A stretch of 64,000 nucleotides of DNA from Patescibacteria group bacterium (GTDB taxonomy: Bacteria; Patescibacteriota; Patescibacteriia; UBA10025; JAHIVO01): the NCBI GenBank assembly GCA_028718605.1, contig JAQULM010000002.1:257776-321775 (forward strand), in the 5' to 3' direction. Position 1 is the first letter of the stretch. Every line of letters begins with the position of its first letter. Below are positions 2,735 through 51,868 of the stretch, in pieces. The position numbers were made by a program, and so were the translations under genes. The notes beneath the pieces were generated by a model, which saw only the letters and a program-made list of their open reading frames with translations, searched no databases and had not been told where the DNA came from.

Positions 2735-3131
2735 TCGGATCCTCCTTTCTTCTCTATATTTGTGCTGTCAATGGAACAGCGCTGTTTGTTTCTTATTTTA
2801 TTATTAACCTATCATTACTCTGTTTACTTGCTTTCTGGTAGAAAAACGTGTCGTCTATCTTTAAAAGTGAAAACAATAATACCCCTCAGCTATTATTCTG
2901 CGGAAAGAAAATATGGACTTTACTTGGAAAAAAGGAGATTTCATCGTACACCCTGAGTGCCCCTTTTGTCAACACGGGACGCCGAAACATGGATTCTGCT
3001 ATACTACAAAGGGGCAGGTATCGGTTGCAGTTGCGCCGCCCGAAAAGGTATTGGAATGCCGCACCTTCTTATCGGCGAATAACCTAAACTGAAACGATAC
3101 GGGCAGCATCAACACAAACCCAATCTCTTCT

Positions 3132-28366: not shown

Positions 28367-28450
28367 GCCGAGATGGTGCAATTGGTAGACACGCTAGCCT
28401 TAGGAGCTAGTCCCCGCAAGGGGTTGGGAGTTCGAGTCTCCCTCTCGGCA
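28367..28450 (+). tRNA. tRNA-Leu, anticodon TAG (type II tRNA with a long variable arm).
   Basis: Acceptor GCCGAGA/TCTCGGC. D-loop GTGCAATTGGTAGAC. Anticodon stem CTAGC/GCTAG with loop CTTAGGA. Variable arm CCCCGCAAGGGG. T-arm GGGAGTTCGAGTCTCCC. CCA is not encoded. Confidence 0.85.
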
Positions 28451-28594
28451 CGAAATGATGCAGAAGCACATGCCCAATGGCATGTGCGTGGAGACGAGAA
28501 AGCCGCAGTGATGCGCGAGTTTCCCGTGAAACGGGAAGGCGAGCGCAACGAGGCGGGGTCGACCGCATTTTCCGTCAGGAAAATGACGGGTGAC

Positions 28595-28615
28595 CGAGTC
28601 TCCCTCTCGGCACCA
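28595..28615 (+). repeat. 19-bp direct repeat of the tRNA-Leu 3' end (CGAGTCTCCCTCTCGGCAC), here followed by an encoded CA that completes CCA.
   Basis: Exact copy of 28433-28451, located 146 bp downstream of the tRNA. The intervening segment contains three short inverted repeats. Confidence 0.5.
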
Positions 28616-37468: not shown

Positions 37469-37585
37469 CTCTGGTGATTAAGCACCAGGGTCACACCTGA
37501 TCCCATTCCGAACTCAGTCGTTAAGCCTGGTAGCGCCAATGATACTACGGGGCATACTGTCGGGAAAGTAGGTTATCGCCAGAAC
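37469..37585 (+). rRNA. rrf: 5S ribosomal RNA.
   Basis: Helix I CTCTGGTGAT/ATCGCCAGA. Conserved CCCATTCCGAACTCAG and GGTAGCGCCAATGATACTAC blocks. Confidence 0.8.
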
Positions 37586-37589
37586 TATC

Positions 37590-37622
37590 AAAAAACGTTT
37601 CTCGCAAGGGAGGCGTTTTTTG
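37590..37622 (+). terminator. rRNA operon terminator.
   Basis: AAAAAACG...hairpin...CGTTTTTTG immediately after 5S. Confidence 0.5.
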
Positions 37623-37795
37623 TTTGCATATTACATGTCTACAACGGGACCTATCCTGAGGCAGCCGAAGGATCTGCCATCGTATTAACTGCGAAGAGTG
37701 CCGTGTTGTTGGCGGGAATCTTGTAAATTCAGCACAAACATGAGGTGGTCCGCATGAACCACCTCACTATGCATCTCCTCGCGGAAGCTTTTTTC

Positions 37796-38281
37796 TTATG
37801 CCATCGTGATTCGCATAAACGATACTGTTCGCGGGAAATACTTACCAACCACGGAACGGTACCGGATGTACGCATCGCCAAATCGAGCGATCAGCTGCTG
37901 CTCCTCGGCATTTGCCCGGATGTTGTCGGTTACGAAGTAACACGCACCGAGTCCGAGGAACACTACGCTGCCAGTCGCGAGAAATACCCCAGCGAGCAAC
38001 ACGATATTGCTTGCATACACAGGATGCCGCACCAGCGCATAAGGACCCTCACGGACTAACGAATGGTCTTGGCGGATTTTCGGCGTCGCCGACCAATTCA
38101 TGCCAAGCGCTCTGTACGCAGCGACCTTCAGCACAATCGAAAAAAACATGACAACCATGCCTACCGCCGCAGCCCATGGCATGCCCAGAAACGGCAGTCG
38201 GAGCCACCGTACATCGTGAGGCTCAAAAGCATACAGCACAATCGCAAGCATGATCGCCGGCAACAGCACGCATGATTTCAC
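37796..38281 (-). CDS. Isoprenylcysteine carboxyl methyltransferase/phospholipid methyltransferase-family membrane protein.
   Basis: VREGPYALVRHPVYASN motif. Multi-TM. Confidence 0.65.
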   Translation of the reverse strand: MKSCVLLPAIMLAIVLYAFEPHDVRWLRLPFLGMPWAAAVGMVVMFFSIVLKVAAYRALGMNWSATPKIRQDHSLVREGPYALVRHPVYASNIVLLAGVFLATGSVVFLGLGACYFVTDNIRANAEEQQLIARFGDAYIRYRSVVGKYFPRTVSFMRITMA

Positions 38282-38656
38282 GGCAACAGCGACACGAACT
38301 GTCGTGCTCGTACCGCCCTCACGGCGGTCAGAATGGACCCCCCGCTGCAGGCAGAGCCGCTAATAGGAAGCAATGAGATGCAAAAGGACGAAGACAAACA
38401 GTACGAACCCCATGAATCGCCTCTTTTTCTTTCGGTGTTTTTACTTAATTACATTACTGTAATACATCTCATGGGAAACTGTCAATTTTCATAATACACA
38501 TTTTTATCACATTGCACCGCCGAATAGTCCCTTCTCAAGCACTGAGCTACAAAACAACCTGTTCATAACAGGTGGATAAACCCCTTGACATTAATTGATA
38601 AAAATGTAAGATATGGTATGATATTTTTACTGTTTATTTGCAAAAAACGCTGAAAA

Positions 38657-39493
38657 ATGGATAGAAAACGCCTTACTATAACGCTCAAAAAGGACCTTTT
38701 ACCATTAGTCGACGAGGTCATTGACGGTGCGCGCATACGCAACCGGTCACATGCTATTGAATACCTGCTCGGCCAGGCGCTCGGCCCCCGGGTTAAACGG
38801 GCGCTCATTCTCGCCGGCGGACGTGGAATCAAGATGCGGCCATTCACGTACGAAATACCAAAAACGCTGATCCCCGTCCACGGCAAGCCAATCCTCGAAT
38901 ACTCGATCGAGCTCCTGCGCGATGCCGGCTTGCGGGACATCCTCATCCATATCGGCCACCTCGGCGACAAGATCGTTGCCCACTTCGGGGACGGAAAGCG
39001 ATTCGGCGTGAAGATTACATATCTCCGGGAGGAATACGAACACGGCACCGCAGCGCCGATACGGCAGGCAAAAAAGCTCCTCGACAAAGAACCATTCATC
39101 ATGATGTACGGCGATACGCTCATCGACATCAACATCCGCGATATGATCGAATTCCACCTCATGCACGGCGCACCGGCAACAATGGCAATAACCTCATCGC
39201 CGAAACCGTACGAGTTCGGCGTCGCCAAGCTGCGTGGCAGTAAAGTTGTCGGGTTCCGCGAAAAGCCGCAGCGTACTCCCCGCATCTCGCACTTCATTAA
39301 CGCCGGATTATTTATCTTCAATCCCTCGGTTCTTGCCCTTATCCCGCCACGCGGACGGTCAATGCTCGAACAGGATGTGCTCCCCCGCCTCGCTGACCAG
39401 GGCCAGCTCTACGCATACCCATTCGAGGGGCAGTGGTTCGACGTGAGCACGCCGGAGATATACGAAGAAGTGCTCAAAGAGTGGAAGCGATAA
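38657..39493 (+). CDS. Ribbon-helix-helix (CopG-like) domain fused to a sugar-1-phosphate nucleotidyltransferase (RmlA/GMPP-like) domain.
   Basis: N-terminus KRLTITLKKDLLPLVDEVIDGARIRNRSHAIEYLLGQAL is an RHH pattern. Then LILAGGRGIKMRPFTYEIPKTLIPV, the G-x-G-x-R nucleotidyltransferase signature. Promoter-like TTGACA-16-TAAGAT upstream at about 38586-38613. Confidence 0.55.
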   Translation: MDRKRLTITLKKDLLPLVDEVIDGARIRNRSHAIEYLLGQALGPRVKRALILAGGRGIKMRPFTYEIPKTLIPVHGKPILEYSIELLRDAGLRDILIHIGHLGDKIVAHFGDGKRFGVKITYLREEYEHGTAAPIRQAKKLLDKEPFIMMYGDTLIDINIRDMIEFHLMHGAPATMAITSSPKPYEFGVAKLRGSKVVGFREKPQRTPRISHFINAGLFIFNPSVLALIPPRGRSMLEQDVLPRLADQGQLYAYPFEGQWFDVSTPEIYEEVLKEWKR

Positions 39494-39604
39494 ACGGTAC
39501 CTTCTTCTGTTGTTGCGATATTGATTATATAGACAGCGTATAATCCATACCGCGACACCAAAACACGCTGTTTGACACCAAGAACACAAGGATCGGAGGT
39601 ACGA

Positions 39605-40582
39605 ATGAAACGTGTTCTCGAGCGGCTGAATTTAGCAGGTGGGCAGGTCCAAGTGCTGCCCAGCGGCTACTATTCAGAAGTAGTAATGATAATCCAGAAC
39701 GGTTCGCCAATAACCGTGAGGATTGTCAAGGATAAACAAGGGCTCACTAAACAACCGGAAGTTGCGTTAGTAGCCAATAGGATTGAGGAATACCATAAAC
39801 GGCTGCGGGACGCGGGTGTTTCAACCACGACCTCACTCTCAACGCATTTACTCGAGGGGGAGGCCGGGTGGGATCTCATTGTCCTGACGCCCTACGTGGG
39901 TGATGATATTCAGCATCGGATGCAAGCTGGCGAAAACGCAGTGGGATTGACCCGCAAGATCCTCGTCGAACTGGAAAAGTGCTTCCAGTACCGATTCGAC
40001 GGATTTGCGCTTCAGCTCGGGATCGACTCGAAACCATCAAATTTCTGCATGCGTACAGAGGCAGATACTGAGGTTCGATATATCGATCTCGTGCCACCGC
40101 GTACTCGCCTCGAAGATGGTACCCCGCTCCTGGAGATCAATCTCCCTACCTCGCAAGAAGCTTTCGAATTCGGATGTTTTCGATACTTCGACCTGCGGGG
40201 AGTTCTCCTCGTTCTCCAGAACCAGGTATCGCGCCTTGTGCCGACCCAACGTCCGAAAATCAAGCGATTGATTCTCGAAACGGCTACGCGGCATGGTGCT
40301 GCGGATTTCTTCCGGGAATCAAAGGCGGAACAATTCGCCAGTGCTTCACCCAATGATCAGGAGGTGATCATCCAGGGGCTCCAGCGGAATGATGTTTATC
40401 CGCTCCGCGAAATCGCTTGCGAAATGGCCACTGCTGGCCAGATTAGTTCCGACAGCCTGGAAACCTTCTTCAGGCAGACCCACTTTTTCACTGATTTTCC
40501 TCCGGAGGATCAGATGACTGAAGTGAAACAAGCACTCGTTGCGTCCCTGAGGACCAACAAGTTACGCTCGCCGCAAAAATAG
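39605..40582 (+). CDS. Hypothetical protein.
   Basis: GGAGGT SD 5 nt before the ATG at 39605. The track ORF begins earlier, at 39572, without an SD. No domain recognised. Confidence 0.45.
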   Translation: MKRVLERLNLAGGQVQVLPSGYYSEVVMIIQNGSPITVRIVKDKQGLTKQPEVALVANRIEEYHKRLRDAGVSTTTSLSTHLLEGEAGWDLIVLTPYVGDDIQHRMQAGENAVGLTRKILVELEKCFQYRFDGFALQLGIDSKPSNFCMRTEADTEVRYIDLVPPRTRLEDGTPLLEINLPTSQEAFEFGCFRYFDLRGVLLVLQNQVSRLVPTQRPKIKRLILETATRHGAADFFRESKAEQFASASPNDQEVIIQGLQRNDVYPLREIACEMATAGQISSDSLETFFRQTHFFTDFPPEDQMTEVKQALVASLRTNKLRSPQK

Positions 40583-40631
40583 CACACTTTAGAAAGAAAG
40601 ATGAAAGGCCCATCACGCGTATGGGCCTTTT

Positions 40632-41552
40632 CTATTTTCTGCGGCTGATGGTAGATATGAGATAATGAAATTCCTCCTCACTGCTGCCACTTTTCCCAAA
40701 AACCCGCCCCGGATGATGGTAACGACCGTGCCAATCAGTCGAACCGAGAGTGAATAAATGCAGTTTTTTCGCAAGATCGGAAAGATATTTCGTTTCTTCC
40801 GGCGAACAGTCGGTATTTCGTATCTCTATGCCTTGCAAACCAACCCGTTGAAGGTCGACGATAAGTTTCTCGACGAACATCCTTTTCTCATCCTCGGTAC
40901 CACGGTATTTTCGTACATAAGCATCCGGATGCGCAAGGACGCTGATCCCGCCCGCGTCATAAATGATCCCACACGCCACATCAGGCCCGTAGAAATCATC
41001 TCCATAGGGAACAAATCCGGACCCACCTCGATTAACCAATGCTTCCAATTCTTTTTCGGCACCTTGCGGAAGTCCCCGTTCAATCCTCAAGGCAATCGCT
41101 ATGTCATATTTCACAACTGGGTCATGCAAGCTCTTTTTGGCTCGGAGTCCGGGGAATTCAATGCCCGTCAAGCCTTGCTCTCGAAGCTTATCAACCATCT
41201 GCGCACTACGCCTATCATACCCTTGGATGACCGGCTGCAATCCTCCGCGGAGCGCTTCAACGTTAAACTGACGTGCGTACCCAAGAACGTGTATCTCCAA
41301 TTCTTGATACTTCGTGCTTACTTCGACGCCCATGCACGTCTTGAGGCCGAACTCACGGCAGGCGGCACTGAACTCTTCACAACCTTCAATCGTGTTATGG
41401 TCAGCCAATACCACTCCGCGCAATCCGCTCGCCCGTGCCTGGCGAGCTACTTCACGTGGCGCAAAGTCACCATCGGAATGATTCGAATGCACATGGGTAT
41501 CGTAATAGTACAGCATAGAAATATTGTTAGACGCTGACGCTGTGTCGTACAT
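40632..41552 (-). CDS. PHP-domain (polymerase and histidinol phosphatase) metal-dependent phosphoesterase.
   Basis: YYDTHVHSNHSDG (H-x-H...SDG) PHP motif plus later His/Asp ligands. The start may instead be the internal ATG at 41516 (MLYYYDTH...). Confidence 0.65.
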   Translation of the reverse strand: MYDTASASNNISMLYYYDTHVHSNHSDGDFAPREVARQARASGLRGVVLADHNTIEGCEEFSAACREFGLKTCMGVEVSTKYQELEIHVLGYARQFNVEALRGGLQPVIQGYDRRSAQMVDKLREQGLTGIEFPGLRAKKSLHDPVVKYDIAIALRIERGLPQGAEKELEALVNRGGSGFVPYGDDFYGPDVACGIIYDAGGISVLAHPDAYVRKYRGTEDEKRMFVEKLIVDLQRVGLQGIEIRNTDCSPEETKYLSDLAKKLHLFTLGSTDWHGRYHHPGRVFGKSGSSEEEFHYLISTISRRK

Positions 41553-41692
41553 ACAGCGTTGCTATATAGTTTGTGAGCAAACGGATTTGGGCAGCATCCG
41601 ATCATTTTCCCATCGTCAACCTCTTCGGTCTGCCGTGATTGCTCGCCAGCAATTAGCATCGGCGCTGTAAAACTGCCCATTGATTGTTAACG

Positions 41693-42481
41693 CTAACGCA
41701 ATAGCTTCAGAACTTGTGTATGCAGCTGTTTATTTGCCGCTACAATACGATGCACTTTTGTATCAAATGGGTTGATCTCCTTGCCACCAAGATCTGTCAC
41801 TGTACCCCCTGCTTCAGCCACAATCAAAGATGCAGCGGCCATATTTATACCAGTAGTATCCGCCGTCCAAACATCAATTGATCCGTCTGCAATTCTCGTA
41901 AGGACCCATGGTGCTGAGCCGAGGATCCTGACCTTCCGAACCACGGGCGCTAATTTTTGTAAAATATGCAATCCGCGGGGAATATATTTCTTCCTGGTAT
42001 CTTGTACATGCCACGAGTACCATCCTGTGCAAACCACTGCTTGGGACAGCATTCCATTTGCAGAAACATGGATGCGCTTATGGTTTAAGACCGATCCCTT
42101 CCCACGCTCTGCAACATACACATCGCCAAGAATATGGTTCGCAACCACTCCCAGAACAACACGGCTGTCCTTAATGAGCGCGATAGAAGTGCAAAAACAG
42201 GGGATATTATGAAGAGAATTAATCATGCCATCGATCGGATCAATCAGCCAAACATAGCGCGCCCGCTTCTCGCTCTTCCAGTAGACGTCTGAAAAAATCC
42301 CGTGGGAAGGAAATGCCTTCTGGATCCGGCGAATCAACATACGTTCAACCATTACATCAATACTGGTAGTTTCATGCCTGGGAAGTTCAAATTTCGTCGT
42401 TGCTTTGATGTGGCGTAAATGCTTTTGCAACATCTGCACTGCTGACCGCGCCGCATACACGGCGACTTGTCGTGGAGTCAT
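41693..42481 (-). CDS. suhB: Inositol monophosphatase family protein.
   Basis: WLIDPIDGMINSLHNIP (DPIDGT motif) and WTADTTG..AAASLIVAEAGG C-terminal motif. Confidence 0.75.
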   Translation of the reverse strand: MTPRQVAVYAARSAVQMLQKHLRHIKATTKFELPRHETTSIDVMVERMLIRRIQKAFPSHGIFSDVYWKSEKRARYVWLIDPIDGMINSLHNIPCFCTSIALIKDSRVVLGVVANHILGDVYVAERGKGSVLNHKRIHVSANGMLSQAVVCTGWYSWHVQDTRKKYIPRGLHILQKLAPVVRKVRILGSAPWVLTRIADGSIDVWTADTTGINMAAASLIVAEAGGTVTDLGGKEINPFDTKVHRIVAANKQLHTQVLKLLR

Positions 42482-42622
42482 GGGGGAGGTTTTTGATTTA
42501 CTTGCTCTCGTGTATCTTTAATATATAGTATACCCCGCACAAAGAGCAATGTCACGAAAACTCGCGGTGTTTGAGCAATGAATACCGTAATGGTACACTG
42601 TACATACGAGCAATAGAAACAT

Positions 42623-43882
42623 ATGCCCCACTACATCGCCGATCTCCACTTCCATTCCAAATATTCCCGCGCCGTGTCGCGAGATATGGATCTCGAACAT
42701 ATCGCCCAGTGGGCGCGCACGAAAGGCATTGATGTTGCCACCACCGCTGACTTCACGCACCCAGTGTGGTATGCGGAGTTACAGAAGAAACTACAACGGG
42801 AGGATGACGGGCTGTACTCATTGAAAAACAATGGGCATGCTACACGCTTCATGCTGACAACGGAAATCAGCTGCATTTATTCAAAAAGCGGCAAAACACG
42901 CCGCGTGCACCATGTCATCATCATGCCTGACCTCGAAGCCGTAAAAAAAATCAACGGCCGCCTCAACCTTATCGGCAACCTGAAGTCGGACGGCAGGCCA
43001 ATCCTCGGCCTTGATTCCAAAGAACTGCTCAAGATTGTTCTCGATACGTCACCGGACGCAATGCTCATTCCTGCTCATATCTGGACGCCATGGTTCTCCA
43101 TGTTCGGATCAATGTCGGGATTCGATACTGTCGAGGAATGTTTCGAAGACCTGTCCCCGCACATTCATGCGGTTGAGACCGGCCTCTCGTCCGACCCAGC
43201 TATGAACTGGCGCCTGTCCCAGCTCGACCGGATGCAAATTGTTTCATTTTCCGACGCCCATTCGCCTCAAAATTTAGGGCGCGAAGCAACCGTCTTCGAG
43301 CTGCCTCAGCTTTCCTACGGAAATCTTACCAATGCACTCAAAGGCAAAAAAACTACAAGCAGCATAGCGCATACAATAGAATTTTACCCCGAAGAAGGCA
43401 GGTACCATTGGGACGGACACCGCAACTGCGCGGTACGGCTCGCGCCCGCCGAAACGAAAAAACTGAAAGGCATCTGCCCGAAATGCAAGAAGCGCATGAC
43501 GGTCGGCGTGCTGTACCGAGCAAACCTGCTCGCTGACCGGCCTGACGGGTACAAACCAGCGAACCGGCCGCCGTACCGCAGCCTGGTGCCCTTACGTGAA
43601 ATCATCGGCGAGGCATTGAACGTCGGCCCGGCTTCGAAAAAAGTCCAGGCCGAATACGAATCGCTCATACAGGTTGGGAAAAACGAACTTAATATCCTGC
43701 TCAATGTCCCGACGGAAGAGCTGGCAGCGATGACGCTTCCGAAAATCGCCGAGGGTATCGAACGCGTGCGTGCGGGTAAACTGACGATCAGCCCCGGCTA
43801 CGACGGCGAGTACGGCACCGTGCACGTATTCAGCGAAGCGGAACGCGCTGCGCCGGCAATGCGCCAATCAACCTTATTTTAA
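42623..43882 (+). CDS. PHP-domain protein with an internal CxxC zinc-ribbon, resembling the endonuclease Q/TIGR00375 family.
   Basis: N-terminal IADLHFHSKYSRAVS PHP-type motif. GICPKCKKRM zinc-binding motif. 419 aa. Family assignment is from memory and needs an alignment. Confidence 0.45.
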   Translation: MPHYIADLHFHSKYSRAVSRDMDLEHIAQWARTKGIDVATTADFTHPVWYAELQKKLQREDDGLYSLKNNGHATRFMLTTEISCIYSKSGKTRRVHHVIIMPDLEAVKKINGRLNLIGNLKSDGRPILGLDSKELLKIVLDTSPDAMLIPAHIWTPWFSMFGSMSGFDTVEECFEDLSPHIHAVETGLSSDPAMNWRLSQLDRMQIVSFSDAHSPQNLGREATVFELPQLSYGNLTNALKGKKTTSSIAHTIEFYPEEGRYHWDGHRNCAVRLAPAETKKLKGICPKCKKRMTVGVLYRANLLADRPDGYKPANRPPYRSLVPLREIIGEALNVGPASKKVQAEYESLIQVGKNELNILLNVPTEELAAMTLPKIAEGIERVRAGKLTISPGYDGEYGTVHVFSEAERAAPAMRQSTLF

Positions 43883-43889
43883 AGAAACC

Positions 43890-44429
43890 ATGCTGACCTC
43901 AGCCATTCTCCTCTTGATCGTAGCGGTCGCGCTCTGCGTACTCGCAGGAAGCATTTTTATAATTTTCCTGTATACCCGCGTCCCGTTTGTCAGGACGCCA
44001 TGGCCCGTTATCGAACTCGTCATCAAAGAAGCTGGCATCCAGCAAACCGACACGATGTACGACCTCGGCTGCGGAAACGCGCGCGTCCTCCTCGAAATAG
44101 AAAAGCGGATCGGCGCGAAAACCGTCGGCTACGAGCTGTCGCCGTGGGCGTACATGCTCGCGCGGCTGAACATCATGCTTCATCGGGCGAAAACGGAGAT
44201 ACGGTATAAAAATTTTTACCACGAAGACCTCTCGGATGCGAACGTCGTCTTCTGCTTTCTCCTGAGCACGGTCATGCCAAAAATTGCCGCTCAGCTTGAA
44301 CAACAGTTGAAGCCCGGGAGCCGCGTTATTTCATTCGCATTCCCGATACACAGCTGGAAACCAGCGAAGGTCCTGAACCCCTTCCCAGAAAAAGAAAAAG
44401 CGAGTAAAATCTATATCTACCAACGATAA
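43890..44429 (+). CDS. Class I SAM-dependent methyltransferase with an N-terminal TM anchor.
   Basis: MYDLGCGNARVLLEI motif I. N-terminal hydrophobic segment. Confidence 0.6.
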   Translation: MLTSAILLLIVAVALCVLAGSIFIIFLYTRVPFVRTPWPVIELVIKEAGIQQTDTMYDLGCGNARVLLEIEKRIGAKTVGYELSPWAYMLARLNIMLHRAKTEIRYKNFYHEDLSDANVVFCFLLSTVMPKIAAQLEQQLKPGSRVISFAFPIHSWKPAKVLNPFPEKEKASKIYIYQR

Positions 44430-44438
44430 TATTGCTCT

Positions 44439-44522
44439 GGAGAGGTGCCTGAGTGGTTGAAAGGGGTGGTCTCGGCCCGTCATTCGACGGGCCGCCCTGT
44501 CGGATGACAGGGCGAAAACCGT
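44439..44522 (+). pseudogene. Truncated tRNA-Ser-like 5' fragment (acceptor 5' strand, D-arm, anticodon arm) with a 40-nt double-hairpin insertion in the anticodon loop. It has no variable arm, T-arm or 3' acceptor.
   Basis: GGAGAGGTGCCTGAGTGGTTGAAAGGGGTGGTCTCG parallels the intact tRNA-Ser at 44806. The insertion GCCCGTCATTCGACGGGC + GCCCTGTCGGATGACAGGGC separates CTCG from AAAACCGT. It runs straight into the GIY-YIG ORF. Confidence 0.45.
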
Positions 44523-44531
44523 TACTCAACT

Positions 44532-44795
44532 ATGAACAATTACGTTTACATCCTATTATTATCAAACAAACAGTTATATACCGGATTTACAAATAATCTG
44601 AACCAAAGGCTTCGGCAGCATAAGGACGGTAAAGTTCAGTCAACAAAACACCAGCGGCCAGTCAAGCTTATCCACTACGAAGTTTACTTGCAGGAATCAG
44701 ACGCTCGGCGGCGTGAAAAATATCTCAAGACTACAGAAGGTAAAAGGTTCCTCAAACAACAAATCCGCGATCTGTTACTTGAAATGCAAAAGTAG
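44532..44795 (+). CDS. GIY-YIG nuclease-domain protein (87 aa), candidate homing-type endonuclease.
   Basis: YVYILLLSNKQLYTGFTNNLNQRLRQH matches the GIY-YIG motif (Y-x-Y..Y-x-G.T.N...R...H). Sits between a tRNA fragment and an intact tRNA. Confidence 0.7.
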   Translation: MNNYVYILLLSNKQLYTGFTNNLNQRLRQHKDGKVQSTKHQRPVKLIHYEVYLQESDARRREKYLKTTEGKRFLKQQIRDLLLEMQK

Positions 44796-44805
44796 CCCCC
44801 TGAAC

Positions 44806-44892
44806 GGAGGCGTGCGAGAGTGGTTGAATCGGACGGTCTCGAAAACCGTTATACCTGCAAAGGTATCGGAGGTTCGAATCCTCCCGCCTCCG
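44806..44892 (+). tRNA. tRNA-Ser, anticodon CGA.
   Basis: Acceptor GGAGGCG/CGCCTCC. D-arm CGAGAGTGGTTGAATCG. Anticodon stem ACGGT/ACCGT with loop CTCGAAA. Long variable arm TATACCTGCAAAGGTATC. T-arm GGAGGTTCGAATCCTCC. Discriminator G. The acceptor stem is extended by a 7-bp inverted repeat (CCTGAAC...GTTCAGG). Confidence 0.85.
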
Positions 44893-44914
44893 TTCAGGGG
44901 AGTAACTGAATCCC

Positions 44915-44934
44915 TGCCCTATCGAATGATAGGG
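44915..44934 (+). repeat. Member of a short GC-rich hairpin repeat family (GCCCTATCGAATGATAGGGC).
   Basis: Related copies at 44474-44493, 44494-44513, 45189-45208 and 51832-51859. All share a CCC(T)GTC-GRAT-GAC(A)GGG-like stem-loop. Confidence 0.45.
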
Positions 44935-45104
44935 CCACCCTCTCCGTTGAGAATCTTGAGATCAAGTATTTTCTCGAATGGCGAAATCCTCCGCCCTCAT
45001 GGCGGAGGGCTCCCGCCTCCGCTCTGAGGAATCCCACCCCTTCCGGTTTGGGGGCTCGCAACGCCATACGGCATCGCGTGGGGTTTATCCCGGGGCGAAA
45101 AGCG

Positions 45105-45137
45105 GTAAGGCTGCAAGGCCTTCGCGAGTTCAAATCT
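45105..45137 (+). other. tRNA-like 3' fragment: T-arm plus 3' acceptor strand, with no matching 5' half.
   Basis: GCGAG-TTCAAAT-CTCGC followed by CCCTTCC-G. No GGAAGGG 5' partner within 100 nt on either strand. Confidence 0.3.
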
Positions 45138-45257
45138 CGCCCCTTCCGCTTTGGGGAATATGGTACGTTATGTAATAAATTGAAGCTTCCCCCTGTCGAA
45201 TGACGGGCCTCGCCACTCAGACCACAACATATTACTATAGTCTTTAACTGGAAAACT

Positions 45258-45707
45258 ATGTCAAAAAAAATACTCACGGTCACCGCGTGTTTAGTTTTAG
45301 CGTTTGTTGTAAGCGCCTGCAGTAAAACTACCGACACAAACACTGCCAATAACGGCAAAGCGGCCAATACGAATACAACCGCGAGTGCCATAAACCAGAA
45401 TTCATCGGGAAGTGTACCGAGCGATACCGTCGTGTCGTGTGCTAACGTAATCACCATTGGTGATATTGTCGTGGAAGATGATCCCATAGGAGAGCCAGAA
45501 GCGTGGGTACGAATCGATTACACCTCGACCGCCACCCAAAAACTTTATTGCGAGTACACACTCACTTTCTATAACGGCCAGGATGCGGTTGTCCGGACAA
45601 TCCCGATTGTTAAGAGTACCTTTGAGTACCCGAGCGGCCAGATCCACAATGGCTACCCCAATACCCCTTTTCAGTCAGGCATGACCGCGCGGATCACCAT
45701 CAAGTAA
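45258..45707 (+). CDS. Lipoprotein, hypothetical.
   Basis: Signal peptide plus lipobox (LAFVVSAC). Asn/Thr-rich linker. Confidence 0.45.
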   Translation: MSKKILTVTACLVLAFVVSACSKTTDTNTANNGKAANTNTTASAINQNSSGSVPSDTVVSCANVITIGDIVVEDDPIGEPEAWVRIDYTSTATQKLYCEYTLTFYNGQDAVVRTIPIVKSTFEYPSGQIHNGYPNTPFQSGMTARITIK

Positions 45708-45959
45708 GCAGAGGGCAACAAATTTTATTTCAAGATCCTACCTTCTCCGATTTCCCGCCTGCCTCTCAGGACACCTTCTACAGAAATTGTGTTTTACAAA
45801 AAGGCATAAAGCCGTAATTTTCTTGCGACCCACATGCCCCAAATTCGCCCTTAGAAAAATAACCGAAAAAACCCCATAATACGTATAGGTTCCGGGTACT
45901 TAACCCGAGTGGCCCGCCAGACAGGATTTTGCAAGCGAAAAGAAATTTTTAATCAATTT

Positions 45960-51829: not shown

Positions 51830-51868
51830 AAAACCGCCCCGTCGGATGACAGGGCGGTTCTGTTGTTG
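51830..51868 (+). terminator. Bidirectional terminator formed by a hairpin-repeat family member.
   Basis: AACCGCCCCGTC-GGAT-GACAGGGCGGTT, flanked by T-runs on both strands. Confidence 0.5.

Follow-up and report, generated by a model that had tools for sequence, protein, structure and literature searches.

What is a gene for a small GIY-YIG nuclease doing between the front part of one tRNA-Ser gene and the whole of another? The question is raised by a locus in a 64,000-nucleotide (nt) stretch of the genome of a Patescibacteria group bacterium (assembly GCA_028718605.1, contig JAQULM010000002.1, positions 257,776 to 321,775), referred to here as the window and numbered from its first letter. 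A preliminary description of this DNA had seen in the locus either the footprint of a homing-type GIY-YIG element by which part of a tRNA gene was duplicated or replaced, or a split or rearranged tRNA locus. We found that the middle of the resident tRNA-Ser(CGA) gene has been replaced by a hairpin doublet, 12 nt of tRNA sequence, the nuclease gene and a complete tRNA gene of another allele, with a GGAGGCG acceptor strand. The explanation that we favor, and consider probable though far from secure, is that of a selfish cassette that invades tRNA genes, supplies a replacement tRNA and spreads by intron-less homing like SegB of phage T4. This explanation rests on the anatomy of the locus, an empty site, conservation across the family, discordance between the cassette and its flanks, and a series of decaying copies. 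The locus consists of the following parts:

44439-44474, plus strand: 5' remnant, positions 1-36 of a GGAGAGG-type tRNA-Ser(CGA) gene (acceptor 5' strand, D arm, 5' strand of the anticodon stem and CTCG)
44474-44513, no strand assigned: hairpin doublet in the anticodon loop (HP1, 44474-44493, loop ATTC; HP2, 44494-44513, loop GGAT)
44513-44524, plus strand: short tRNA piece of 12 nt, GAAAACCGTTAC, an exact repeat of positions 35-46 of the intact tRNA
44532-44795, plus strand: GIY-YIG nuclease gene, 87 amino acids, of the UPF0213/Slx1-like branch (Pfam PF01541)
44797-44812, plus strand: 5' arm of an inverted repeat, the 9-nt leader CCCCTGAAC and the acceptor 5' strand
44806-44892, plus strand: intact tRNA-Ser(CGA) gene of the GGAGGCG type (ARAGORN; Rfam tRNA model, 55.2 bits)
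44885-44900, plus strand: 3' arm of the inverted repeat, the acceptor 3' strand, the discriminator G and the trailer TTCAGGGG
44908-44946, plus strand: 3' remnant of the resident tRNA gene, GAATCC (44908-44913) and CACCCTCTCCG (44936-44946) with a 22-nt hairpin (44914-44935) between them

The preliminary description had recognized several of these parts correctly. The segment that it took for a copy of the 5' part of the tRNA-Ser gene aligns over 36 nt, ungapped, with positions 44806-44841 of the intact tRNA at 78% identity, and the D stems differ by compensatory changes (CCT/AGG in the 5' remnant, CGA/TCG in the intact copy). The two hairpin repeats that it placed within the anticodon loop are indeed perfect hairpins between CTC(G) and (G)AAAACC, and the 87-codon GIY-YIG open reading frame (ORF) that it noted after the short tRNA piece matches PF01541 with 60.9 bits against a cut-off of 22.6 (E=1.4e-16, profile positions 2-74 of 78). 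ARAGORN and Rfam call only one tRNA at the locus, Ser(CGA) at 44805/6-44892/3, and leave the broken copy uncalled. An independent Logan assembly (run SRR22315508) reproduces 37497-44891 exactly and breaks at the tRNA 3' end.

The origin of the outer, broken gene is revealed by syntenic loci, which were reached via methyltransferase orthologues by protein search and exact-sequence look-ups; a metagenome scan with the same methyltransferase yielded two distant loci only, both without tRNAs. In the window, a gene for a PHP-like protein (42623-43882) and a small methyltransferase gene (43890-44429) lie upstream of the broken tRNA locus. In L062 and L063, the same two genes are followed, 7 nt after the stop codon, by an uninterrupted GGAGAGG-type tRNA-Ser(CGA) gene (GGAGAGGTGCCTGAGTGGTTGAAAGGGCTGCTCTCGAAAAGCAGTAAGGTTGCAAGACCTTCGTGGGTTCGAATCCCACCCTCTCCG in L062), and the GIY-YIG gene is absent from this site. 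The 5' remnant matches the L062 gene in 34 of 36 nt, and the 3' remnant, with its hairpin removed, reads GAATCCCACCCTCTCCG, which is exactly the last 17 nt of that gene. Because both ends match, the outer gene of the window is an L062-type allele, and the heptamer CCTCTCC (44939-44945), which the preliminary description had suspected of being an orphan 3' acceptor strand of the first copy, is part of the broken tRNA's own 3' end. What the outer gene lacks are positions 37 to about 57, that is, the variable arm and the 5' strand of the T arm. Thus, the comparison with an empty site, along with the discordance between nuclease and flanks described below, bears out the earlier idea of a homing-type element that replaced a portion of a tRNA gene. 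One mark of a homing gene is that homologous sites either carry it or lack it, the allele that lacks it having an intact target; the other, an element that is more alike between genomes than its flanks, is seen as well.

Before turning to this second mark, the possibility has to be weighed that the outer tRNA is functional, as an intron-containing, split or permuted gene whose halves are joined as RNA, in line with the second suggestion of the preliminary description. The insertion lies at or beside 35/36, a position of group I introns in Patescibacteria tRNAs (PMC13011429), and an anticodon stem around the two hairpins can be formed in a fold of the 5' fragment, the doublet and AAAACCGT. However, no match to a group I intron, for which a check had been proposed, or to any other ribozyme was found up to E=10, the T stem is split by a hairpin, and the segment missing from the outer gene contains the variable arm and the T-arm 5' strand. 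Furthermore, the GGAGAGG and CCTCTCC acceptor strands lie about 500 nt apart with a complete tRNA between them, and this intact tRNA has the same anticodon. We therefore abandon the suggestion of a functional split or rearranged tRNA, which these data make scarcely credible.

The nuclease gene is markedly more similar between genomes than its surroundings. The nucleases of the window and L003 are 92% identical in amino acids and 88% in nucleotides (codon differences: 20 synonymous, 7 non-synonymous), whereas the flanking PHP-like and methyltransferase proteins are only 67% and 51% identical, respectively. High identity sets in directly behind the hairpin (GGGCGAAAACCGTT) and stops 4 nt past the stop codon. 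The tRNAs next to the nuclease genes in the two loci are different alleles, and the remnant upstream in L003, GGAGGCGTGC (10 nt), is the start of the working allele of the window. Tandem arrays are found in L015 (three units of 394 nt), L037 (two units of 402 nt), L008 and L010. At the other end of the scale are decayed copies, with the ORF truncated at its 5' end and fused to the doublet in L068, and with remnant fields that contain no ORF in L058 and L067.

Two loci, L060 (3531-4330) and L065 (3546-4335), contain nested invasions with two nuclease genes. The nest starts with a 13-nt tRNA 5' fragment, followed by a different doublet in the D loop and an AT-rich GIY-YIG gene; then come another 5' half, whose anticodon loop holds a doublet, a second GIY-YIG gene and an intact tRNA. 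The two nucleases have only about 42% identity, so that each of these tRNA loci harbors two distinct cassette lineages. In L004, which is the same as L060, a GIY-YIG ORF has an in-frame TAA (3040-3042) in place of the Gln of its relatives (SNK*LYTG), which probably means that this copy was inactivated recently.

A scan of one genome per species yielded 53 loci encoding relatives of the nuclease, 54 with the window. In 39 of these 54, a tRNA on the same strand starts within about 40 nt of the end of the ORF or overlaps it, and in 4 more, the tRNA follows after additional tandem units. The adjoining tRNAs comprise Ser(CGA), Ser(GCT), Ser(GGA), Gln(CTG), Tyr, Arg, Lys and Ala. In most loci, the ORF is preceded by an incomplete tRNA of the same type that a doublet interrupts; this combination was recorded for Ser-CGA, Ser-GCT, Ser-GGA, Gln, Arg, Lys, Ala and Thr. 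The doublet typically sits in the anticodon loop for Ser(CGA) (CTCG^AAAA), in the T loop for Gln, Ser(GCT) and Ser(GGA) (GGTTCG^AATCC), and, for Arg and Lys of Saccharibacteria, in the D loop, the exceptions being the anticodon stem once (Ala) and the variable region once (Gln). Between the doublet and the ORF leader, 4-12 nt of tRNA are left across loci, and in all single units, the doublet and the tRNA lie 270-302 nt apart. L021, L026 and L034 have a mirrored form, in which an intact tRNA and the ORF are followed by GGTTCG-doublet-GAATCC and the 3' end of another allele. The full architecture, including the doublet, is present in Patescibacteria and in Lentisphaerae/Victivallales, the latter at 67-71% protein identity. 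Five distant relatives (L047, L048, L050, L052 and L053, at most 50% identity) showed no tRNA association and no hairpins.

Within the window, the hairpin motif occurs 7 times against an expectation of 1.08. Given this enrichment and the recurrence of the architecture in dozens of unrelated assemblies, the layout of the locus is not due to chance. A full-text literature search, the coverage of which excluded most subscription journals, returned no description of the tRNA cassette or of the doublet. Many of the invaded tRNAs in L003-L046 are isoacceptors with C at position 34 (Ser-CGA, Gln-CTG, Lys-CTT). The codons of such isoacceptors can also be read by those with U34, and the element may, as a general remark, persist best in dispensable tRNA genes.

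According to Pfam and an AlphaFold2 model, the nuclease is a single GIY-YIG domain without an additional DNA-binding domain. Y6, Y16, G18, H30 and E50 are invariant in 28 relatives, R26 is nearly so (at least 90%), and the basic C-terminal helix is strongly conserved. The closest solved structures by sequence are the UPF0213 proteins 1zg2 and 1ywl in the PDB (E ~1e-6). The model is confident (predicted local distance difference test score, 91.5), with the topology E-E-H-E-H-H, and Foldseek ranks UPF0213 first, then Slx1 (7cq3, template modeling score 0.62, root-mean-square deviation 1.8 Å) and the UvrC N-terminal domain; I-TevI is not among the fold matches. Judging by the conserved residues of the catalytic core (the Tyr of 'GIY', the Tyr-x-Gly of 'YIG', Arg and Glu) and the predicted fold, which agrees with the beta-beta-alpha-beta-alpha arrangement of the superfamily, the enzyme looks intact. 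At thresholds of E<=1e-3, E<=1e-10 and E<=1e-30, a profile search against 1.84 billion representative sequences retrieved 17,311, 2,827 and 15 clusters, respectively. A search for defense systems gave only a marginal PADLOC match (UzuA, E=0.0017, 27 residues) and no NCBIfam model, and no second copy of the nuclease was found in the 64-kb window.

Such a large and widespread chromosomal family, with a highly conserved protein and a Bacillus homologue, yazA, adjoining a tRNA methyltransferase gene, could also suggest a host gene that is vertically inherited and has a cellular role, for example, in repair or tRNA-linked processing, with the tRNA fragments as neutral debris. We consider this highly improbable, given that the gene is present or absent at a syntenic site, is discordant in its similarity with the flanks, occurs in tandem, nested and pseudogenized copies, is linked to many different tRNA isoacceptors, and keeps the same architecture in different phyla.

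The doublet itself consists of two perfect hairpins (44473-44494 and 44493-44514), each with a 9-bp stem and a 4-nt loop. An ambiguity of one G places the insertion at 34/35 or 35/36. In all 28 adjacent pairs of hairpins, the first loop is ATNC and the second GNAT; the reverse complement of a doublet has the same order of loops, so that both DNA strands present the same structure. When 19 distinct doublets from other loci were fitted to a two-hairpin model, 99.6% of the 266 cells were Watson-Crick paired. Forty-six cells had changed on both sides, there were no one-sided changes and no G-U pairs, and the loops and two closing pairs were invariant. Pairing between HP1 and HP2 was no more frequent than in shuffles (82% versus 81% of cells), without excess covariation. 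Strict Watson-Crick covariation without wobble suggests a structure at the DNA level or a palindrome that is templated, and not an RNA element. Doublets differ in form with the nuclease clade, being 36 nt long in Saccharibacteria and 40 nt elsewhere. Among 69 hairpin clusters, the left flank is GTTCG in 19 and TCTCG in 7, the right flank is (CG)AATC in 20 and (CG)AAAA in 11, and 19 clusters are placed in GGTTCG^AATCC.

Hairpins of this family were also encountered in other settings. At 51833-51862 (motif at 51837), two convergent ORFs have between them a single hairpin, AACCGCCCCGTCGGATGACAGGGCGGTT, and then a T-rich run; outside any tRNA context, this looks like a terminator-like use of the repeat. 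In L004/L060 (4350-4420), a 'solo' junction reads CTCG, doublet and then GAATCCCTCCCCCACCG, which joins the left flank of an anticodon loop to the right flank of a T loop through one doublet, as expected if two doublets had recombined and deleted the sequence between them.

Do doublet and nuclease belong together at all? They might merely co-occur, with a hairpin similar to repetitive extragenic palindromes (REP) that enters tRNA-like sequences and persists only in dead tRNA copies, a GIY-YIG gene that happens to lie upstream of tRNAs, and duplications produced by ordinary recombination. Single hairpins at 44914-44935, 45191 and 51837, a tRNA-Leu at 28367 with a duplicated 3' end and hairpins but no nuclease gene, and the ORF-less remnants of L058 and L067 are in keeping with such independence. 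Against this, one lineage after another has the doublet at 14-57 nt upstream from its ORF, and the partial copy stops 4-12 nt past the doublet whatever the loop, which would be unexpected of independent insertions. Moreover, the doublet changes its form with the nuclease clade, and the hairpin is where the highly identical block of the window and L003 starts. Mere co-occurrence is thus quite unlikely. The widespread conservation of the architecture, the doublet as an integral, covarying part of it, and the additional remnants at 44950-45210 described below all go beyond the preliminary description.

How would a selfish cassette of this kind spread? Cutting of DNA by the protein, the target of the cut, and repair-copying as the route are what we infer. 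The cassette would comprise the palindromic doublet, a few tRNA nucleotides, the minimal GIY-YIG gene and the complete replacement tRNA-Ser(CGA). The nuclease would break a cassette-free tRNA gene at or near one of its stem-loops, and the break would be repaired by copying from cassette-bearing DNA. The interrupted 5' copy of the tRNA up to the loop would serve as the left homology arm, and the rest of the intact tRNA or, for divergent alleles, the downstream remnant from the T loop to the 3' end, as the right one. Since the cassette brings a working tRNA or the 5' part of one, the host would retain tRNA function, and repeated invasions would leave behind remnants of earlier alleles, tandem units and nested copies. 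Such a route would account for the loci with identical copies, for the tandem units and the build-up of 3'-end remnants, and also for the layout of the window, where the recipient allele is the source of both remnants and these enclose an entire foreign tRNA. Intron-less homing appears to be the most economical route. The doublet at the junction could make the broken copy uncleavable, be the binding site of the nuclease, or both. Campbell-type integration of a circle with an interrupted 5' copy was considered and rejected: it fits the loci with identical copies but fails for the window, where the resident 3' end lies beyond a complete foreign tRNA.

Several observations weigh against homing of this type. 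The protein has only 87 amino acids and no DNA-binding domain, its closest folds (UPF0213 and Slx1) are structure-specific nucleases, and sequence-specific cutting by such a domain is unlikely. In L012, L015, L029, L037, L040, L042 and L043, the interrupted and intact copies are identical up to the insertion; the intact copy therefore retains the presumed target, so that disruption of the site alone cannot explain self-protection. Furthermore, the nuclease gene and the replacement tRNA recombine independently, since the window shares the nuclease but not the tRNA allele with L003, and the tRNA allele with L005. With regard to a vehicle between cells, phage and plasmid collections contained only distant relatives of the nuclease, with less than 45% identity, and IMG/VR contained none.

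Some of these difficulties are addressed by a structure-guided element, in which the doublet is a cis-acting site and the Slx1-like nuclease reads structure instead of sequence, namely extruded hairpins or cruciforms, tRNA gene stem-loops among them. The element would move by cutting at or beside the doublet and then joining or copying, in a transposon-like manner and not by classical homing. The features in favor are the strictly Watson-Crick stems and the invariant loops and closing pairs, with the same ATNC/GNAT order on both strands; a nuclease without a DNA-binding domain that is most similar in fold to UPF0213 and to Slx1, a nuclease of branched DNA; insertions that are nearly always in the loops of tRNA arms; the short tRNA segment on the ORF side of the doublet, as if the cut were made at a fixed distance; and single hairpins or doublets in remnants and, once (51837), outside any tRNA. 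On the other hand, strand transfer and covalent intermediates are not known for GIY-YIG enzymes, so that a host ligase or repair step would still be required, and there is no target-site duplication. The partial copy is always of the same isoacceptor as the adjacent tRNA, a better fit to homology-dependent copying than to free transposition, and in L019 and L022 the ORF lies between tRNAs without hairpins. On balance, movement by this route is doubtful, if worth serious attention. The broader notion that the doublet and the 87-amino-acid nuclease make up a new kind of structure-guided mobile element, one that recognizes stem-loops in tRNA arms and in its own doublet, we hold as a tentative possibility. 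If it were true, one minimal enzyme could invade D, anticodon and T loops across phyla, and tRNA alleles could turn over rapidly by 'kill and replace'.

The intact tRNA-Ser(CGA) at 44806-44892 is, in the selfish-cassette explanation that we favor, the replacement copy traveling with the cassette; with its flanks, it is 91% identical to the tRNA beside the homologous nuclease in L005. The preliminary description had noticed that its acceptor stem is extended by an inverted repeat. The repeat is perfect (44797-44812 with 44885-44900), but repeat search and folding give a helix of 16 bp rather than the 14 bp stated there. Cassette-borne tRNA-Ser(CGA) alleles in the window, L003, L004, L005, L058, L064 and L065 all have acceptor helices of 13-17 bp built from leader and trailer. 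The extension covaries between alleles (TGAAC/GTTCA, AAAGC/GCTTT, AGAGC/GCTCT, ACTCC/GGAGT) and tolerates G-U pairs in L006, and the empty-site tRNAs of L062 and L067 lack it. The 16-bp helix probably acts in the transcript, perhaps as a processing helix of a co-transcript that separates the mRNA from the tRNA.

The remaining features around the locus are:

44382-44410, plus strand: promoter-like site within the 3' end of the methyltransferase gene, about 29 nt before the tRNA 5' fragment (consensus scan, 9/12)
45010-45028, plus strand: older remnant of a GGAGGCG-type tRNA, its last 12 nt, CTCCCGCCTCCG, and the trailer CTCTGAG
45029-45053, plus strand: older remnant of a GGAAGGG-type tRNA, from the T loop to the 3' end, GAATCCCACCCCTTCCG, and the trailer GTTTGGGG
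45096-45156, plus strand: older remnant of another tRNA-Ser(CGA) allele, positions 35-87 and trailer, truncated in the anticodon loop
45191-45208, plus strand: isolated hairpin of this family at the far edge of the field of remnants, with 1 mismatch to the motif

The promoter-like site may be the promoter of the resident tRNA and now perhaps drives the cassette. The region 44950-45210 is, by its sequence matches, a field of further remnants from earlier tRNA alleles. The remnant at 45010-45028 is identical to the intact allele over 12 of 12 nt and to L058 (3753-3771) over 19 of 19; the one at 45029-45053 is identical to positions 71-87 of the L065 tRNA (17 of 17 nt) and is part of a repeat family in the window; and the one at 45096-45156, preceded by degenerate hairpin sequence (~45070-45095), equals positions 35-95 of the working tRNA of L003 in 61 of 61 nt, trailer included. 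A split or permuted tRNA with 45096-45156 as the 3' half was rejected; the acceptor and anticodon stems mismatch those of the 5' fragment, and the segment is 100% identical to the L003 tRNA. The motif (T/G)TGAGAATCT(C/T)GA(A/G), which resembles a T arm (GTGAG TTCGAAT CTCAC) minus TTCG, recurs 3' of tRNA remnants in the window (44947-44975), L003, L005, L058 and L004.

Elsewhere in the window, the tRNA-Leu(TAG) gene (28367-28451) has an exact 19-nt copy of its own 3' end (from GAGTC of the T loop onward) at 28595-28613, about 145 nt further on, with several GC-rich hairpins and no ORF in between; the segment 28367-28613 has the appearance of a relic without an ORF, left at a second tRNA gene by an event like that at the tRNA-Ser locus. 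In the segment 34142-37584, the 23S rRNA match, which is followed by a 5S rRNA, covers 3143 nt against a model of 2925 nt and thus holds about 200 nt of insertions, in which a motif search found no hairpins of the family. No 16S rRNA gene is present in the window.

If the favored explanation is true, a selfish cassette of about 0.4 kb invades and replaces tRNA genes in ultra-small bacteria of the candidate phyla radiation (CPR), or Patescibacteria, and in some Lentisphaerae. This would explain the unusual diversity of tRNA-Ser(CGA) stems among related genomes, as well as the fields of tRNA fragments beside tRNA genes and the tRNA genes that annotation tools miss or truncate. Intron-less homing would be extended from the large Seg enzymes of phages to bacterial chromosomes and a minimal nuclease of the UPF0213 type, and a very large family of uncharacterized small GIY-YIG proteins would gain a testable function. 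The strictly Watson-Crick doublet is a candidate signal of DNA structure, and the enzyme that goes with it could be a nuclease of very small size, specific for structure or site.

Among known systems, REP and REPIN elements resemble the doublet in being short GC-rich palindromes, single or in inverted doublets, that are scattered in intergenic DNA, whereas the hairpins of the cassette are concentrated in tRNA loops beside a GIY-YIG gene. A REPIN/RAYT or IS200/IS605 system was rejected because the locus has no HUH (Y1) transposase gene and a long hairpin formed by HP1 and HP2 is unsupported. With islands and prophages that integrate into tRNA genes, the cassette shares the tRNA target, the partial duplicate at the boundary and the feature that the element keeps the tRNA whole, but its length is only about 0.4 kb, its duplicate is usually the 5' part instead of the 3' end, and a palindromic doublet marks the junction. 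An integrase-mediated island was likewise dismissed, as no tyrosine or serine recombinase is present and the GIY-YIG gene is the sole family-matched ORF between the remnants.

The domains of UPF0213/YhbQ/YazA and Slx1 are the best matches of the nuclease in sequence and fold and have the same minimal size, but the distant relatives that we checked (at most 50% identity) lack linkage to tRNAs and hairpins. In eukaryotes, Slx1 acts with Slx4 on branched DNA.

In CPR bacteria, GIY-YIG ORFs have been reported in insertions of rRNA genes that belong to neither class of intron, group I or group II (Tsurumaki et al. 2024, PMC11270868), and most of the insertions in these genes overall are found at the tip or the foot of stem-loops (PMC11270868). 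The host group, the presence of GIY-YIG genes in non-intron insertions, and a structural RNA gene as the site are common to both cases. However, the targets there are rRNA genes, and tRNA targets, duplicated gene parts and hairpin doublets are not reported.

Group I introns with homing endonuclease genes, for which GIY-YIG is not mentioned, occupy anticodon loops of bacterial tRNAs, including position 35/36 in Patescibacteria (PMC13011429). They are similar to the cassette in the tRNA target, the anticodon loop (34/35 or 35/36), the host phylum and the logic of a mobile element. The cassette, in contrast, has no ribozyme and supplies the intact tRNA as DNA instead of restoring it by splicing, and other members of its family are inserted in D and T loops. 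A group I intron at this locus was rejected: when 43800-45800 was scanned with Rfam at E<=10, nothing but noise and the intact tRNA came up, and the would-be exons lack positions 37-57.

The closest parallel is SegB of phages T4 and T6, a free-standing GIY-YIG endonuclease encoded in a tRNA gene cluster, which recognizes a T-loop motif, is inherited preferentially together with the neighboring tRNAs, and drives recombination-dependent tandem amplification of segB and tRNAs (PMC2330249, PMC13096335). In both systems, the GIY-YIG gene lies directly beside tRNA genes and outside any intron. Where SegB reads a T-loop motif, many cassette insertions are found in GGTTCG^AATCC; SegB spreads with neighboring tRNA genes at the expense of the recipient markers; and tandem units of nuclease and tRNA are found in the cassette family as well, for example, in L015, L037 and L008. 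The differences are no less distinct. Beyond the GIY motif, no sequence relationship between the proteins is detectable (BLASTP E=0.05 over 19 residues; hhalign probability 2.6%), and the cassette nuclease, a single domain of 87 amino acids compared to 221 in SegB, is devoid of the C-terminal DNA-binding domain of the Seg type. With no sequence homology, no two-domain build and no fold match to I-TevI, membership in the Seg/I-TevI family was rejected. SegB is carried by phages and the cassette by chromosomes of Patescibacteria and Lentisphaerae, where it leaves an interrupted partial tRNA with a palindromic doublet and replaces a single-copy tRNA of the host. In the explanation that we favor, the cassette works like a free-standing homing endonuclease of the Seg type but lies outside that family.

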